Assembly: GCA_964488565.1 (NCBI GenBank)
Contig: CAZAUE010000001.1
Span: forward strand, 42,687 to 106,686
DNA from: an uncultured Candidatus Saccharibacteria bacterium
Lineage (GTDB): Bacteria; Patescibacteriota; Minisyncoccia; 2-02-FULL-40-12; GWA2-44-9
Direction of reading: 5' to 3'
Length of the DNA stretch: 64,000 bases
Numbering within the stretch: the stretch's first letter is position 1; each line of letters opens with the position of its first letter. Below, one piece after another: positions 20,918 through 62,778 of this stretch. Both the position numbers and the translations under genes were made by a program. Below the pieces are notes generated by a model that saw nothing but the letters and a program-made list of their open reading frames with translations, was not told where the DNA came from and made no database searches.

Positions 20918-21011
20918 AACAGTGGCAGGCGTTAGTCACTTTATTAATACCCCAATTTTAACACAAAAAAACAGGCAAAAAATGTGCCTGTGGACAAATT
21001 GAAAGTAAAAA

Positions 21012-21045
21012 AAGAGGAGGCGCCATAGCGCCTCCTTGATGGTTC
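21012..21045 (-). terminator. Intrinsic terminator of GC-rich cassette A
   Basis: Perfect 8-bp stem GGAGGCGC-CAUA-GCGCCUCC, followed on the minus strand by CUCUUUUUUUAC. Confidence 0.6.
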
Positions 21046-21056
21046 GGGGTCGGTTC

Positions 21057-21605
21057 TTAGAAATTGAACCTGACTCCGGCGACCCCGCGACCATCGCCGA
21101 TGGCATAGGTTCCCCAGAGGGCAACCTTACCAACCGACACTTGGACGTAGGGACCGGTTCCGATGAACCGCTGGCTGTTCACGCCGACGGCGACGGTCTT
21201 GGTCATCTGGAACGTTCCCAGATAGCGATACCAATAACCGCTTCCGCCGTGTTCGTGGAGGGAAAGGAGCGACCATCGCCCCGAGCCGAGCCACACGCTA
21301 CCGCCACCACGAAGCGGGTTGTCGGCAGTCTCCAGTCCAAGACTAGCAGACACCTCCACCCACTCGGCGGGAGCGTACGTGAGGCCGGCGTAGCCCTCAC
21401 TCCACTCCTCAGATGTCAGCGTCCAAGCCGACCATCCAAGTTTGCCCTTGAGTGGGCCGTGGACGTAGACGTTGAGCTGAGGCGTAACACCTTCCTCGCT
21501 CACCGTGTTGAACGACTCAACGTACCCAGAGGCCTGCTGAGCCTGAGCAGTCACGACCGTGAGGGTCATGATGATCGTCACGAGAACGAGTTTTGTCAGC
21601 TTCAC
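21057..21605 (-). CDS. GC-rich (~60%+) ORF encoding a signal-peptide-bearing outer-membrane beta-barrel-like protein (GTG start). Foreign or anomalous cassette A.
   Basis: Signal peptide MKLTKLVLVTIIMTLTVVTAQA. Alternating aromatic/Gly beta-strand pattern and a C-terminal ...GVRFNF ending in Phe, as in Gram-negative OMPs. A SD sequence AAGGAGAGAG lies 6 nt upstream, with its own promoter and terminator. Confidence 0.55.
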   Translation of the reverse strand: MKLTKLVLVTIIMTLTVVTAQAQQASGYVESFNTVSEEGVTPQLNVYVHGPLKGKLGWSAWTLTSEEWSEGYAGLTYAPAEWVEVSASLGLETADNPLRGGGSVWLGSGRWSLLSLHEHGGSGYWYRYLGTFQMTKTVAVGVNSQRFIGTGPYVQVSVGKVALWGTYAIGDGRGVAGVRFNF

Positions 21606-21663
21606 TGTCTCTCTCCTTGCCCCTGAATGGGGCGGTTTTCAAACATCTAACCTTAATACCTAT

Positions 21664-28626: not shown

Positions 28627-28808
28627 TCAATTTCGGTTTGAGCTGCGGGACTTGGAATCTCACGTCGTGAGTAAAATGACTCGCAAGGCCTAGCATTTTA
28701 CTCACTCCTTGAAACCCCTCGGTTTCAATACTTCCGCCACGGGAGACCCATAGTTCTCCCGACCCCTCTCCATTCGAATCCAAGCCCCTTGCACTCGTTT
28801 CACTCGTG

Positions 28809-28880
28809 CTGCGGGACTTGGATTCGAACCAAGATACTGGGCTTCAAAGGCCCATGTCCTACCATTAGACGATCCCGCAA
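28809..28880 (-). tRNA. tRNA-Gln (anticodon UUG)
   Basis: Manual fold: acceptor UGCGGGA/UCCCGCA with U1-A72 and discriminator G73 (as in bacterial tRNA-Gln); D-arm GUCU/AAUGGUA/GGAC; anticodon stem UGGGC/GCCCA with loop CUUUGAA; T-arm CUUGG-UUCGAAU-CCAAG. CCA is not encoded. Confidence 0.8.
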
Positions 28881-34502: not shown

Positions 34503-34546
34503 GTATAAAGTATATCATAAATATTAAAAAACCGCCTCCGGAGAGC

Positions 34547-34590
34547 GGGAACCAAGATATCTGGTTCCGCCCTCCGTGGCGATCATGCGC
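34547..34590 (-). terminator. Intrinsic terminator of cassette B
   Basis: Long GC hairpin (core GGAACCA-N8-UGGUUCC with extended outer pairing), followed on the minus strand by UUUUUUAAUAUU. Confidence 0.45.
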
Positions 34591-34609
34591 GACGCGATGT
34601 CCGTCGGCG

Positions 34610-35029
34610 CTACTTTCTCGGCGTGACGGTCGGAACCACACTCTGTTCCGACTTCACGCTGAGGTGGTACTGCCACACCACGTAGGTGTAGCCGGGGTAG
34701 GTCACGTCTTCCACCACGCGGGTGGGGACGGTGGCGACGACCTTCCGAACCGTGCTCGGAGGCAGGCTGTCGACCTCTTCGATCAACGGCATGCCTCGGT
34801 CGTCACGAACCGGGACCACCACGGACGTCCGCGGAAGCGAGCGGTCCGCGAAGTCGAACACGCGAGCGTCGCCTCCGCCCTTGATCGTGGCCTTGTAGGT
34901 GAACGCCAAGGCGTACACCTTGTTGGTCTCGATGCCGTCGCCCCGCCCGAAATTGGCAAAGGCGATAATGGACACGACGGCCACGACAAAGATGGTGGCG
35001 ATGAAAACGAGAACGCGGGTCCGATTCAT
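34610..35029 (-). CDS. GC-rich (~65%) ORF encoding a 139-aa N-terminally membrane-anchored hypothetical protein (cassette B)
   Basis: SD AAGAGG 7 nt upstream; N-terminal TM (VLVFIATIFVVAVVSIIAF). Composition (R/V/T/P-rich) and codon GC are unlike host genes. Confidence 0.5.
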   Translation of the reverse strand: MNRTRVLVFIATIFVVAVVSIIAFANFGRGDGIETNKVYALAFTYKATIKGGGDARVFDFADRSLPRTSVVVPVRDDRGMPLIEEVDSLPPSTVRKVVATVPTRVVEDVTYPGYTYVVWQYHLSVKSEQSVVPTVTPRK

Positions 35030-35094
35030 TTCTGCCTCTTTCTGTTATGCCCCCTAAGGAGCGGTTGGTAAGGGTCTAAATCAACTCTGTAATT

Positions 35095-38078: not shown

Positions 38079-38087
38079 AACAAATTA

Positions 38088-38600
38088 AAGCGCCCCGCCA
38101 GATTTCTCCAGCGGGGCGGTCGTGCCGTCTTCTTCCGTGCCTGTTGCGCGTCTGTGCGGTATCTTTGTCGATGGCTTACAGAGGCCTCGGCTCTGGGCCA
38201 TAGGAGCGCCACTTGCATGTGCCTCCTAAACGCGGGTTGCAGATTGCCTGTGTGGTTGGTTCCGGTGCCAGCTTACAGGACCTTCTTTCCTGTGCTGGGT
38301 GCCGTATCGCGACGACGTACTCTCATGTTCCCCCTTCTGAGGAGGGTGGTGGAAGGGGCGCGCACCGCCCCTTCCAAGTGGTTGTGAATCCCTCGCCGTT
38401 TAGCGGCGGGAGACCGGGTTATCCACCATTCCCCGTGGGTTAACAGAACGTAGGTGCGAAGACTCGTCCGCCACCGTCCCGTTCTGTGCACAGTCCAGCG
38501 TGGCGATAGGTTCACAAGAGGCTTATCGCGAGATTGCTCTCGGACCTCCTTGTCCCTTGTCGCCACGCCGGACCGTCTTGTTGGCTCTCTAACTTAGAGC
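38088..38600. other. ~500-nt GC-rich (~62%) non-coding block with dense hairpin potential. Possible structured RNA or foreign DNA; identity unresolved.
   Basis: Only overlapping composition-driven ORFs on both strands, none protein-like. Perfect hairpins include CGCCCCGC...GCGGGGCG (38091-38118) and GGAAGGGGCG-CGCA-CGCCCCUUCC (38352-38375). A long-range ACAGAACG...CGUUCUGU pairing is possible. Confidence 0.35.
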
Positions 38601-38831
38601 CCGAAAAAAACCAGCAAATTACGACTACCGAACTACCTTAGAGCGACTATGGATGTCCTTACCCCTATTCCTTCAGGCCAATTATTATTACTTGAATGCC
38701 TGGATATTGAGATATTTACGAGGTGTTTGCTGGCTTTTTTCGAGCCCTTTTTAGGAGCCCGATATGTAAAGAACTTAGTGTTTTTAAAGTATAGCAGATA
38801 GCCATAACAATGTCAAGTACTAAGATTTAAT

Positions 38832-38863
38832 AATTAAATAGGGCCATGCGCTTCGCGCGCATG
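38832..38863 (-). terminator. Intrinsic terminator of cassette C
   Basis: Perfect palindrome AGGGCCAUGCGC-UUCG-GCGCAUGGCCCU, 13 nt after the stop codon, with an A/U-rich tail on the minus strand. Confidence 0.55.
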
Positions 38864-38875
38864 GCCCTCACTTCC

Positions 38876-39226
38876 TTACTCGTCTTCGTCGACGACGTCG
38901 TCTTGGACCTGGAAATCGGTCCTTGAATCGACGATGTCTTCGAGGGGGACGAATGGCTCGTTCAAAGCCCACTCGTCGCGGGTCTCGACGACACGTCGCA
39001 CGTGACCCCAATAGCTCTCGCTGACGATTGCCTTGGACTTGAAGGTCTTGCCGATGCGCCGAGTGCGGAGGCGATCATTGCGAACAATCCGCGCCTCCTC
39101 GTCAACGACTTCGGGCGTGAACGTCGCCGTTGCGAAACAACCGGACTGACTGCGGTTCTCAGGAACGAACGTCCCTTCGAATTCGCGCGTCATCTCGGCT
39201 GCCATCCTCTGGGCTCGTGAACTCAT
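38876..39226 (-). CDS. GC-rich (~62%) ORF encoding a 116-aa acidic hypothetical protein (cassette C)
   Basis: SD GGGGGT upstream; the start overlaps a 1-codon minimal ORF (ATGTAATGA). Acidic C-terminus (QVQDDVVDEDE). Confidence 0.45.
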   Translation of the reverse strand: MSSRAQRMAAEMTREFEGTFVPENRSQSGCFATATFTPEVVDEEARIVRNDRLRTRRIGKTFKSKAIVSESYWGHVRRVVETRDEWALNEPFVPLEDIVDSRTDFQVQDDVVDEDE

Positions 39227-39271
39227 TACATACCCCCGTCGTTATGCCCCCTTGGGCTTGATTGAAAACAA

Positions 39272-39300
39272 CTATTCCACAATAATACACCAAAAATGCC
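39272..39300 (-). promoter_or_regulatory. Sigma70-like promoter for cassette C (TTGACA-N17-TATTAT)
   Basis: On the minus strand: TTGACAaaatggcatttttggtgTATTAT. The leader contains AGGGGGCATAAC, as in cassette B. Confidence 0.45.
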
Positions 39301-42999: not shown

Positions 43000-43080
43000 A
43001 CAAGTACGTTCAGTGACAGGTCGTTAACAAGCAAGTCTGTAAACCCCCGCCAGTCAGGCGAGGGGAAGAAGGAGTCAGTC

Positions 43081-43530
43081 ATGAAGATTCAGGCCAGCCT
43101 CGTCTCGATGTCGAAGAACCAGAAGCGCGCCATGGTCACCGTGACCACGGGCGAGGGCGCCCACCGCCGGTCCACCACCCGCCACATCGGCTTCACGGAT
43201 GGTGCATGGTTCGGTCACAACCCCGACGAGCGAGCAGTTCCGCTCAACCGGCGCTACACCGCCGAGCTCCTCGCCGCCAAAGGCGACCTCGCCGGCGAGC
43301 AGGCGACGCTCACCCAGCTCGAGGAAGAACTCCTCAAGCTGGAAACGACCGAGCCGACGACGGAAATGGACACGGCCATGATCGCCGGCTACAAGGCCGA
43401 GCTGGCCGAGGCCATCAGCGAGGCCAAGGCCCTGGTCAACTTCGCCGAGGCATCCGTCGCCGAAGCCGAGCTCAAGCTCCACATCGTCGAGAAGGAAGTG
43501 CCGCTCGAAGTCGAGTTCGGCATCTTCTAG
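43081..43530 (+). CDS. GC-rich (~64%) ORF encoding a 149-aa hypothetical protein with a C-terminal coiled-coil/alanine-rich helix (cassette D)
   Basis: Strong SD GAAGGAG 9 nt upstream of ATG. Protein MKIQASLVSMSKNQKRAMVTVTTGEGAHRR...AELAEAISEAKALVNFAEASVAEAELK. Composition unlike the host. Confidence 0.5.
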   Translation: MKIQASLVSMSKNQKRAMVTVTTGEGAHRRSTTRHIGFTDGAWFGHNPDERAVPLNRRYTAELLAAKGDLAGEQATLTQLEEELLKLETTEPTTEMDTAMIAGYKAELAEAISEAKALVNFAEASVAEAELKLHIVEKEVPLEVEFGIF

Positions 43531-43549
43531 ACATCGTCGACACCTACCA

Positions 43550-43610
43550 AGCCCGCCCTTTCCCACATTCTTGATTGAATCACTGGGAAAGAGCGGGCTC
43601 TTTCATTTTC
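43550..43610 (+). terminator. Intrinsic terminator of cassette D
   Basis: 16-bp stem AGCCCGCCCUUUCCCA...UGGGAAAGAGCGGGCU (one bulge), followed by CUUUCAUUUUC. Confidence 0.55.
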
Positions 43611-60832: not shown

Positions 60833-60917
60833 ACCCAGTAGTGAGTTTTCCGAAAGTTTTTAGCGACCTTGTCGCAATCGAAAAATCTACTACTGGGCAA
60901 ATGCTCTGTTAAAAAAG

Positions 60918-60943
60918 AGGGGGCGACTTCGTGTCGCCCCTTA
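60918..60943 (-). terminator. Intrinsic terminator of cassette E
   Basis: GUCGCCCC...GGGGCGAC stem, followed on the minus strand by CUCUUUUUUAAC. Confidence 0.6.
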
Positions 60944-60953
60944 AGTCTGGTCG

Positions 60954-61106
60954 CTACAGTGTGTGGCCAGATTTCTCGGACTTCCGTCGGCGGTTCGCCC
61001 GCCGAGCGGCCTGCTTCCGAGCCCAGCTCATGCCACCCTGGCTGGACTGGCCGTACTTGTGAAGCTTGTGCAGGTGTCGTTTCACCCGCATTTCACGTTT
61101 GGTCAT
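60954..61106 (-). CDS. GC-rich ORF encoding a 50-aa highly basic protein (cassette E, gene 2)
   Basis: My own translation gives MTKREMRVKRHLHKLHKYGQSSQGGMSWARKQAARRANRRRKSEKSGHTL. SD GGAAGGGGG lies 6 nt upstream. It is below the ORF-track cutoff. Confidence 0.45.
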   Translation of the reverse strand: MTKREMRVKRHLHKLHKYGQSSQGGMSWARKQAARRANRRRKSEKSGHTL

Positions 61107-61124
61107 TTCTATCCCCCTTCCTAG

Positions 61125-61373
61125 CTAGTCGTTGACGGCGTCGACGGCGACAGCGCCCGCCCAAGTCGCTTCTCCAGCGATCTTGCGCAAAACAGCCATC
61201 AAGCCGTACTTCTGCGCATAGGCCTTCGCGGCCACCGAATCGCCACGCTTCAGGATACGACGAAGCTTGCGCTCCGACGTCCTGGCGAAAGCCGGCGCAA
61301 ATTTTCCGTTCCGGCGTCCGGCCGAACCGGGCTTGCCCTTCTTGCCTTCCTGACCCTTCTTCTCGGTCCCCAT
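61125..61373 (-). CDS. GC-rich ORF encoding an 82-aa basic protein (cassette E, gene 1)
   Basis: SD AGGAGGG 6 nt before the ATG (MGTEKKGQEGKKGKPGSAGRRNGKF...). It begins 19 nt after the stop of the upstream host membrane-protein gene. Confidence 0.45.
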   Translation of the reverse strand: MGTEKKGQEGKKGKPGSAGRRNGKFAPAFARTSERKLRRILKRGDSVAAKAYAQKYGLMAVLRKIAGEATWAGAVAVDAVND

Positions 61374-61392
61374 CTGACCCTCCTCATGAATA

Positions 61393-62778
61393 CTAACGTT
61401 GTCCCAAGATTGTATCACTAAATTTTAGTGATGTCAACCCAAAGCTCAACAAAGACAGCGTGAGCCAAAAGATGAATCTTCCCTGCTGAAGTGTCCACAA
61501 GAAGTGGTCAAATAAACCAAAGAATAGAAAAGATAGAACTATGAGCAAAAAAGAATAATGGTATAACTTACTCATTTTTGTTCTCAAGATGAAATCCTTA
61601 ATAAGGAGAAGCAGAAAAATGGCAAACACAGTGATGCCCAATATTCCATTCTCTGAGTAAATCAGGAGATAAATATTGTGTACTGGCTGATAAAGATTAC
61701 GCGATAAATTTTGATCTTTAGTCATTAGCCAATCAACAAAATTACCGGAACCAACTCCAAACCAGTTCAAGGACTTTAATGATTCTTTGTTGTAAAAAAT
61801 TCTCAGTTGAACAGCCTCCTCCCCAGAAGATATCTTTACCCGACTAATCGCTTCGGGCCAATAAAACACCGAGAAACCAGAAGTAACAATGAGTGTTGTT
61901 ATAAATATTAGAGCTAATTTTTTATTCCAATACTCTTTCCCGAACTTTAAGCGCACGAGGATAATTCTTATCAAAAAATTAATAAACAGAATAAATATTG
62001 CTACTCGTGCAAAGGTAAAAAAGAAGGCTAAAAGAGTTAATCCGAACACGAACAGGTAAAATTTGCTTATATTCTTGTAGATCCATAGATAATAAAAAGC
62101 AAAAATTGCCAAAAATAAATACGCGGCCAGAATATTCGGATGGGGCGTGGTGCCATAAGCACGAATAATCTTTTCTCCTGCCATGTTGTAAAAAGATGCG
62201 ATACCAGACATGTTGAGCCCAATAACACTTTCCCCGAGTAACCTGAGACCCAAATCCGATTGTTTAAAAAATTGAAGCACTGCGATTATTGCCTGAAATA
62301 ATCCCCCAGCAATAATAACCATCAGTGAATTGCCAAAACCAAATCTCGTCACAGCATAATTCTTAATATAAAGATAAAATAAAATAAATTCCAAAAGTTT
62401 TATCCAATTATAGAAGGCAAGTTGAGGACTAATAGCGTTTCTGATTGAAACCGCCGAGATAATAATGAATAAGGCCAGAAAAAAATCTGGTTTTTGGATT
62501 AGGTGTTTGGTGTTAGATATTGAGGGTTTAAAAAAATTAGCATAATACTTGATATTGAATATTTGATACGTCTTCGGAGAATTCCCAAGCCAAAACAAAA
62601 ACAAGATCAAAAGCAGTAGGTCTGTTGCGTACAAAGACGCCGACTGCCATTCATTAAAATTCCAGCTCTGATGCCACAAAATTTTCCGTACCTGAAACGG
62701 AATAGCAAATAACAGAAAATAAAATAAAAATTGTTCTGACCTATTTAACAAATAGTGCATAGACAATACCCGCCCCAA
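61393..62778 (-). CDS. Polytopic membrane protein, O-antigen ligase/Wzy-like
   Basis: 461 aa with at least 10 TM helices and a large loop. The family assignment is tentative. Confidence 0.4.
   Translation of the reverse strand: MGRVLSMHYLLNRSEQFLFYFLLFAIPFQVRKILWHQSWNFNEWQSASLYATDLLLLILFLFWLGNSPKTYQIFNIKYYANFFKPSISNTKHLIQKPDFFLALFIIISAVSIRNAISPQLAFYNWIKLLEFILFYLYIKNYAVTRFGFGNSLMVIIAGGLFQAIIAVLQFFKQSDLGLRLLGESVIGLNMSGIASFYNMAGEKIIRAYGTTPHPNILAAYLFLAIFAFYYLWIYKNISKFYLFVFGLTLLAFFFTFARVAIFILFINFLIRIILVRLKFGKEYWNKKLALIFITTLIVTSGFSVFYWPEAISRVKISSGEEAVQLRIFYNKESLKSLNWFGVGSGNFVDWLMTKDQNLSRNLYQPVHNIYLLIYSENGILGITVFAIFLLLLIKDFILRTKMSKLYHYSFLLIVLSFLFFGLFDHFLWTLQQGRFIFWLTLSLLSFGLTSLKFSDTILGQR

Follow-up and report, generated by a model that had tools for sequence, protein, structure and literature searches.

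A GC-rich intergenic block of a Patescibacterium is probably part of a gene for a large structured non-coding RNA

The DNA analysed here (the window) comprises 64,000 nucleotides (nt) of contig CAZAUE010000001.1 (assembly GCA_964488565.1, positions 42,687 to 106,686 of the forward strand) from an uncultured Candidatus Saccharibacteria bacterium. It encodes PMT_2/GT-C transferases, an FtsQ-like POTRA protein, SerRS, AspRS, MreB/C and PBP2, a gene content indicative of Patescibacteria. The GC content of the whole window is 39.1%, and seven islands of high GC, each of 450-650 nt, stand out from it. One of them, the block at 38088-38600 studied here, begins 10 nt past the stop codon of a GT-C gene, and the nearest named relatives of the encoded GT-C protein are Candidatus Yanofskybacteria and other Paceibacteria. 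A GC content of 60.4% was determined for the block, which confirms it as GC-rich at a value slightly lower than the ~62% given in a first-pass annotation of the sequence. With a probability of about 0.75, we consider this block to belong to an independent gene whose product is a large, structured, non-coding RNA of which no description was found; the gene spans ~700 nt of the minus strand, and the block makes up its variable 3' two-thirds. In independent Rifle groundwater assemblies, including the ANAN16 set, the locus is the same base for base, save for a 1-nt indel within the block, and is therefore real DNA and no assembly artefact. The indel concerns one G in the GC-rich part of the RNA, which is missing from one of three independent assemblies (L003:9051, corresponding to window position ~38234); it stems either from an indel in the population or from a difference in assembly, and its position would shift any reading frame.

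No coding signal was detected in the block. The GC content at codon positions 1/2/3 of its longest open reading frame (ORF) is 0.58/0.57/0.64, a flat profile without coding periodicity, whereas five other GC-rich islands of the window show 0.59-0.65/0.41-0.49/0.70-0.89, the pattern of real genes. When all stop-free stretches of at least 40 amino acids (aa) in the six frames of the block were searched against Pfam, no match at E<=1 was obtained. The non-coding character proposed by the first-pass annotation is thereby borne out, and the pseudogene of a high-GC coding sequence that it had named as the counter-explanation was not found. A small plus-strand ORF (38649-38801; 50 aa) was rejected as a candidate gene, as 1-nt indels and a 12-nt deletion break its frame in homologues. 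Folding of the minus strand gave a minimum free energy (MFE) with z = -5.7, and of the plus strand one with z = -4.9; for each strand, 0/100 dinucleotide shuffles folded equally well, so that the structure exceeds chance. The perfect hairpins noticed earlier are real, but the loop of one of them, described as having 4 nt, is the 5-nt CGCAC, closed by a perfect stem of 11 base pairs (bp; 38350-38360/38366-38376). Inverted repeats of 23 nt (I1; 38596-38618/38726-38748) and 17 nt (I2; 38490-38506/38560-38576) were also located. A tandem-repeat or guide-array architecture was rejected, since the sole repeat found in the RNA, a 13-nt unit present twice, corresponds to the two strands of helix P1 described below.

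The gene possesses transcription signals of its own. A sigma-70-type promoter on the minus strand (38788-38816) matches 11 of 12 consensus positions, with the -35 element TTGACA (38816-38811), a 17-nt spacer and the TG-extended -10 element TATACT (38793-38788), and would place the start of transcription at ~38781. It is situated ~7 nt upstream of an invariant leader sequence. Matches of at least 11/12 to this consensus occur only nine times on both strands of the whole window, in five cases ahead of a GC-rich island. In 22 of 26 homologues, TTGAC(A/T)-17-TGnTATA(C/A)T is found at a constant distance from the 5' motif of the RNA, with spacer sequences that vary. At the other end, an intrinsic terminator on the minus strand (38081-38118), consisting of a 12-bp GC hairpin (38118-38091) and the U tract CUUUAAUUUG, adjoins the stop codon of the convergent GT-C gene. 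Of 18 full-length extracts, 15 showed a GC hairpin with U tract near the predicted 3' end in a strict scan; for loci L033, L046, L050 and L034 the end of the RNA was placed by eye, and the terminator stem sequences vary between lineages. The transcript predicted from these signals has ~700 nt (38083-38781, minus strand), with AU-rich sequence in its 5' domain and GC-rich sequence in its 3' domain; the extended -10 promoter, being close to consensus, leads us to infer high, constitutive expression. The extent of 38088-38600 given in the first-pass annotation therefore lies inside the RNA gene, but the unit continues for ~185 nt through an AT-rich stretch (38783-38597) up to 38783, and the strand, the best-conserved 5' domain and the promoter had been missed. 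Taken together, the gene's own promoter and terminator, the conserved fold described below and the lack of both codon periodicity and Pfam matches lead us to conclude that this is a stand-alone gene for a structured RNA.

About 30 homologues were found in total, in Yanofskybacteria-like Patescibacteria, which are ultra-small bacteria of groundwater. In contigs with GT-C proteins of 85, 84, 65, 61 and 55% identity, a GC-rich island directly follows the GT-C gene in all cases, and in the alignment of these relatives the AT-rich part is best conserved, the short motifs of the GC-rich part being spaced by very unequal lengths. A gapped pattern derived from the conserved part retrieved 6 genome and 37 metagenome loci, of which ~26 carry the 5' motif of the family and the rest are chance matches. 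Extra relatives found through GT-C homologues at 55-56% identity (one labelled Pacebacteria) also carry the RNA; a scan of the genome collection with GT-C peptide patterns gave no match. At every locus with enough flanking sequence, SerRS, FtsQ, sometimes MurB, and then the RNA are encoded in this order on one strand, converging on the GT-C gene, and the RNA is kept at this site even though the identity of the adjacent GT-C protein is no more than 52-85% in these relatives. Homologues differ by many indels of varied length. The distance from promoter to terminator amounts to 255 nt in L034, 412 nt in L033 and 573-956 nt in the others. L034 (2255-2414 and downstream) has the 5' domain, a tail of ~75 nt and the terminator only; this form is a natural minimal version of the RNA, and in this locus an unrelated small ORF lies between the RNA and the GT-C gene.

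The first-pass annotation had also considered foreign DNA related to cassette C (38876-39226), a unit distinct from the RNA gene that has a promoter and a terminator to itself. This idea does not hold, as the block is syntenic and vertically conserved and has no similarity to cassette C or to the other GC-rich islands of the window in blastn and tblastx comparisons; blastn against phage and plasmid records gave no match to the block either. Cassette C itself is a species-specific extra unit between ftsQ and the RNA promoter and is absent from the relative with 85% identity (L008).

Conservation combined with compensatory base changes, as expected of a structured RNA, was found for three elements: modules D and F of the 3' domain and helix P2 of the 5' domain. 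Module D (38334-38439, minus strand) comprises, in this order, stem S1 closing the loop GAAUGGUGGAUAA, stem S2, the strand UUCACAACCACU and the 11-bp GC hairpin S3. Its covariance model (R1) yielded one hit per homologous locus with 64-93 bits, and 86.6 bits in the window. In an alignment of 17 sequences, 86.7% of the cells are paired versus 45-58% when partners are slid, and two-sided changes occur at 13 pairs (36 cells) versus 4-9 pairs for slid and 7.4 for shuffled controls, with 0/500 shuffles matching the observed values. The CCACU of UUCACAACCACU can pair with the loop sequence GGUGG in a putative pseudoknot, a helix which is 100% paired and in which variation goes from G·U to A-U only. 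Module F is present in two copies on the minus strand (38268-38298 and 38171-38201), each a UAA-bulged hairpin with an outer stem, an inner CAGGA/UCCUG hairpin and the UAA bulge on its 3' side (..CCUGUAAGC.. in the first copy). Among 18 gap-free instances of hairpin F, 92.8% of the cells are paired, compared with at most 43% for slides, and compensatory changes affect 5 pairs and 18 cells, which was reached by 0/500 shuffles for both cells and score. The idea that hairpin F acts as a CsrA sponge was rejected because GGA is not conserved in its loops.

In the 5' domain, helix P2 is formed on the minus strand by the 5' strand AAAAAAGCCAGCAAA (38726-38740) and the 3' strand UUUGCUGGUUUUUUU (38604-38618) with its U7 tract, both being part of inverted repeat I1. 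Its consensus, AAAAAAGCCAGYAAA paired with UUURCUGGUUUUUUU, describes a long-range A6/U7 helix of 15-22 bp that encloses two arms. In P2, 97.6% of the cells are paired and 4 pairs (9 cells) show compensatory changes (A-U to C-G or G-C, U-A to C-G), which appear once four distant sequences are added to the close relatives; 0/500 shuffles reach the observed cell count, and slid controls are also exceeded. A covariance model of the whole 5' domain (R2) gave one hit per locus with 113-186 bits, 35-105 bits for distant relatives and no hits when run on the chance loci or on viral loci. The covariation in homologous loci that the first-pass annotation had proposed to look for is thus present in module D, hairpin F and P2. 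Its suggestion of a structured non-coding RNA, GC-rich in an AT-rich genome, gains further weight from the ~30 homologues and their conserved promoter and terminator.

The remaining elements of the 5' domain also lie on the minus strand. It begins with the leader AAACACUAAGUUCUUUACAUA (38763-38783), unpaired in the consensus fold, in which AGUUCUUU and the following CA are invariant in 23/23 sequences and the A in between is near-invariant (at least 90%). Pairing of the leader with the 456-467 region, as seen in the MFE fold of the window RNA, was rejected, since the partner is conserved only in the closest relative; pairing with the P4 loop is unsupported, two natural loop variants being uncompensated. 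The leader is followed by P1 (38741-38761), a hairpin with the strands CGGGCUC and GGGCUCG (CGGGCYC and GGGCYCG in the family), in which 87.6-93.3% of the cells are paired and changes are one-sided only; it contains G·U pairs that fit the minus strand only. Between the strands of P2 lie two arms. The P4 arm (38666-38706) has an AUCC-AGGC/GCCU-GGA(A/U) stem and a conserved 20-nt loop starting with AUUCAAGUAAGAUAU, with 87-98% of the cells paired; its sequence is almost invariant and it is present in single-sequence folds of all homologues. The P5i arm (38630-38658), with closing pairs GRAC/GUUC, would complete the 5' three-way junction as its third arm. Its region was misaligned by MAFFT, but the arm recurs in the single-sequence folds of each subtype. 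Hairpin B (38583-38603) follows the U7 tract; it pairs a second CGGGCUC with GAGAGCC (in the family, CGGGCYC with a downstream GRGCCC), has a length of ~20-75 nt among homologues and is followed by a conserved CAAnAAGAYGG.

The second CGGGCYC (38597-38603) may instead pair with the 3' strand of P1 (38741-38761), which would lengthen P2 to 22 bp. Both pairing schemes fit all sequences, with 94.8% of the cells paired in the former and 98.2% in the extended 22-bp helix. In the two most divergent homologues (L011 and L056), both CGGGCYC copies are altered jointly to (C)GAGCC, as expected if both share one partner at different times. The duplicated CGGGCYC hints at two alternative conformations. 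Either copy could pair with the one GGGCYCG, and the two pairings about the A6/U7 helix would exclude each other; the 5' domain may therefore switch conformation, or it might be a leaky terminator and so determine the proportion of short and long RNA.

Several homologues carry an extra hairpin of ~40 nt (GGGAGUGCGCCGUGCUUUAGCCGGCAAAGCUCUC) in the P1 loop. Another hairpin of ~45 nt, CGGAGUGGUUUCRUGGCGGUGCKUWAGCCCGCCGAGGAACUCUG with a GUAA or UUUA loop, recurs in the 5' domain of homologues (L006:12495-12729, L057:6340-6589 and L058:6840-7078, as well as L009, L019, L026 and L038) and sits at two different places depending on the lineage. Both inserted hairpins look like portable structural modules.

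Besides modules D and F, the 3' domain contains on the minus strand a long hairpin C (38490-38577; GGUCCGGCGUGGCGA...UCGCCACGCUGGACU), which corresponds to inverted repeat I2 and appears in the MFE fold. At its position, homologues carry GGCCCGGCGCAGUC...GACUGCGCCGCGGCC, as judged by eye without counting. Next to it, the long-range pairing ACAGAACG...CGUUCUGU proposed by the first-pass annotation was recovered in the MFE fold as the stem of a hairpin (38443-38487) that constitutes a lineage-specific variable arm, which other homologues lack or have in a different form. When the complete RNA of the window is folded, its MFE structure recovers most of the modules defined by comparison, S1 and the pseudoknot of module D being replaced by a nested alternative. 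The 3' domain is made of fast-evolving, interchangeable hairpins around the two conserved modules D and F.

Several points weigh against this interpretation. Sampling is confined to one clade. Owing to the strong conservation of the 5' domain, covariation lends practically no support to P1 and P4, and only conservation and single-sequence folds speak for P1, P4, hairpin C and the inner arm. For the pseudoknot of module D, two-sided variation is lacking, and the data are compatible with it without proving it. Since the alignments used for covariation were fitted to the models and contain related sequences, the shuffle counts overstate significance and should not be read as probabilities. Ends and abundance of the transcript are deduced from sequence signals. 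A literature search of incomplete coverage found no description of the RNA family, which may be described elsewhere. We hold it nonetheless to be very probable that a genuine structured-RNA gene exists on the minus strand, and regard it as rather probable that the family is undescribed.

With regard to function, the leader, the A6/U7 helix and the P4 loop remain fixed when neighbouring proteins have diverged to 52-65% identity, which suggests that the 5' domain is a recognition core. The GC-rich arms, which change, grow, shrink and nearly vanish in L034, suggest an accessory scaffold with D and F as conserved sites. The RNA might be made abundantly and act in trans as a folded molecule, most likely as a ribonucleoprotein (RNP) scaffold, action in trans being deduced from the lack of a downstream gene to regulate. 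Its sequence-invariant 5' elements would then present the surface recognized by a protein or by another RNA, and the GC-rich arms would confer stability and accessory sites. We propose this trans-acting scaffold only tentatively, as our best guess, and would not bet on it; it also counts against it that no partner protein, target or ligand is indicated, which makes the scaffold a default guess.

Alternatively, the element might act mainly in cis, for example as a conditional terminator, attenuator or 3' untranslated region (UTR)-derived RNA belonging to the operon of ftsQ/murB or to the pair of converging genes. The RNA is always encoded directly after ftsQ or murB, on their strand, and reaches up to the end of the convergent GT-C gene, P2 with its U7 tract is terminator-like, and the flanking CGGGCYC/GGGCYCG sequences permit alternative pairings. 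However, the RNA has its own conserved near-consensus promoter, no gene lies downstream of it, covarying modules extend up to ~600 nt past the U7 tract, and the synteny may merely reflect low rearrangement in these genomes. A mainly cis-acting element is unlikely in our view.

Even less probable is a highly divergent housekeeping RNA (RNase P RNA, transfer-messenger RNA (tmRNA), signal recognition particle (SRP) RNA or 6S RNA) that was missed by the Rfam models. A single conserved locus with a strong promoter, a length in the range of RNase P RNA or tmRNA, an A-rich purine strand (GAAAAAAGCC) which comes after a hairpin and pairs over a long range, the ACAGAAC of the window copy and the possible pseudoknot would all agree with such an RNA. 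However, the covariance-model search against Rfam that the first-pass annotation had suggested matched no family: at the gathering score of Rfam 15 there was none in the block or in 18 homologue loci, and with relaxed thresholds none at E<=10 in the block region and none at E<=1 in L006, L008, L011 and L012. In the two shortest forms (L033 and L034), only chance-level hairpin matches were obtained at E<=10. Also, the 3' domain is dispensable in the 255-nt L034 form. For SRP and 6S RNA, the models gave no hits, and the SRP helix-8 motif, a GNAR loop together with its symmetric loop, is absent even at up to 4 mismatches.

For RNase P RNA, the weak resemblance noted in the first-pass annotation could not be substantiated. 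With the RNaseP_bact_a/b covariance models, neither the window nor any scanned homologue was hit, even at E<=10 in the block, and the ACAGAAC helix of the window lies in a variable arm. On the RNA strand, ACAGAA occurs in 3/18 homologues and a CR-I-like GGAAAGUCC (at most 1 mismatch) in 2/18, neither at a conserved position. In RNase P RNA, CR-I and CR-V (ACAGAA plus the 3' strand of P4) are universally conserved and build P4 between them. The studied RNA is similar to bacterial RNase P RNA in size, in its single locus and in a hairpin followed by an A-rich strand pairing long-range, and the window copy contains ACAGAAC, but it has neither CR-I nor CR-V nor a P4-type pseudoknot enclosing a specificity domain, and its 5' and 3' ends are unpaired. 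RNase P RNA was therefore rejected, as there is no model hit and the CR-I/CR-V signature is not conserved. With tmRNA the RNA has in common its size, a possible pseudoknot, A-rich stretches and a conserved UAA in a hairpin loop, but it lacks the tRNA-like acceptor, the T-arm domain and the terminal CCA, and UCCACCA occurs on the RNA strand in only 1/18 homologues. As ARAGORN detected no tmRNA in the window, Rfam was negative and a tRNA-like domain is lacking, tmRNA was rejected too, and a tag-peptide frame ending at the conserved UAA is ruled out by upstream length differences of 11 and 12 nt.

A functional RNA on the plus strand, for instance a structured 3'UTR of the GT-C gene, is very improbable. 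The plus-strand fold is nearly as good as that of the minus strand, and the block starts directly behind the GT-C stop codon. However, G·U pairs are frequent (13/17 at one pseudoknot pair; 15-17/23 at positions of P1 and P2) and would become A·C mismatches on the plus strand, which argues for the minus strand. Model R2 scored 158.8 bits (E ~1e-30) on the minus strand of the window versus 24.5 bits in antisense, and promoter and U-tract terminator are conserved on the minus strand only; from scores and signals alike we conclude that the RNA is encoded on the minus strand. Decayed protein-coding or horizontally acquired GC-rich DNA can be dismissed almost entirely: the block does exceed the mean GC content of the genome by far, five other islands encode small proteins, and in L006 a gene caller placed a plus-strand ORF of 237 aa across the corresponding region, but the block has no periodicity, no Pfam match and no similarity to other islands, phages or plasmids, and it has been kept at the same site across deep divergence with compensatory changes and frame-breaking length variation.

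Few large bacterial RNAs of unknown function are known, and OLE, ROOL, GOLLD and HEARO each, once studied, gave unexpected biology. To our knowledge, no large RNA of this kind has been reported from Patescibacteria. Neither the window nor any scanned homologue locus (4 at E<=1, 18 at gathering score, 2 at E<=10) was matched by the models for OLE, GOLLD, ROOL, HEARO and raiA, RNAs whose function is unknown or has been probed only recently. The studied RNA resembles these large ornate RNAs in kind only: it is stand-alone and lineage-restricted, has hundreds of nt, many helices, a putative pseudoknot and insertable arms with GNRA-type caps. It also has in common with them that it forms a long GC-rich intergenic region in an AT-rich genome, the signature used in searches of GC-rich intergenic regions (PMC11109978, PMC6429828). 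It differs from them in occurring in Patescibacteria, in a conserved core that is an AU-rich 5' domain and in a total length that varies between 255 and 956 nt. GOLLD and ROOL are often phage-borne, whereas the studied RNA was not found in viral contigs, where pattern hits fail the covariance model.

The loop of module D, AAUGGUGG(A)UAAC(C), resembles the T-box sequence GGGUGGNACCGCG, and we consider this a lead only; the closest loops are those of L006 and L026 (AUGGUGGUACCGGG), and the UGGU of the loop is complementary to ACCA. The T-box covariance model gave no hit. Unlike a T-box, the studied RNA is upstream of no gene, and its GGUGG is located in a hairpin loop, where it would pair with the internal CCACU, and not in an antiterminator bulge.

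In Patescibacteria genomes of ~1 Mb with little non-coding DNA, a 700-nt RNA kept at one locus is unlikely to be idle, and its promoter is among the best in the region. At its broadest, the finding would represent a new class of large modular non-coding RNA (0.25-0.95 kb), strongly expressed and fixed in Yanofskybacteria-like Patescibacteria, with an invariant, AU-rich three-way-junction 5' domain that, bordered by the duplicated element with its two exclusive pairings, serves as a switch of conformation or termination or as the binding core of a new RNP, and a counterpart of OLE/ROOL/GOLLD in the candidate phyla radiation (CPR); for this we see an even chance. With L034 (255 nt), the family offers a naturally short version from which a minimal core can be defined; it further offers two conserved 3' modules and a possible switch. 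The heuristic of searching GC-rich intergenic regions works in Patescibacteria but needs a check of codon periodicity, as most islands of the window are small protein genes.

The five protein-coding islands (20991-21650, 34511-35050, 38831-39290, 43001-43610 and 60891-61430; 57-64% GC) contain self-contained small protein genes with strong codon periodicity and a GC content at third codon positions of 0.70-0.89 versus ~0.3 in ordinary genes. Each has its own terminator hairpin and four of the five have a near-consensus (at least 11/12) sigma-70 promoter. For two of them, orthologues with 55-68% amino-acid identity were found at the same sites in relatives, indicating that these two islands are old residents and not recent imports. 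The only RNA of the window found by ARAGORN or by Rfam at gathering score is a tRNA-Gln (UUG) on the minus strand (28808-28879). The motif AGGGGGCAUAAC is common to the 5' UTRs of two unrelated GC-rich genes (34610-35029 and 38876-39226), where it is located on the minus strand at 35040-35060 and 39245-39262, shortly before the ribosome-binding site. On the minus strand at 21057-21605, a GC-rich ORF of 182 aa has an N-terminal signal-like segment, an alternating beta-strand-like sequence and a C-terminal ...RFNF, but no Pfam hit; the predicted protein looks like an outer-membrane beta-barrel protein, which would be odd for a Patescibacterium. Finally, one GC-rich island contains, on the minus strand, two small, very basic, Arg/Lys-rich ORFs (60954-61106, 50 aa; 61125-61418, ~80 aa), which could encode nucleic-acid-binding proteins.

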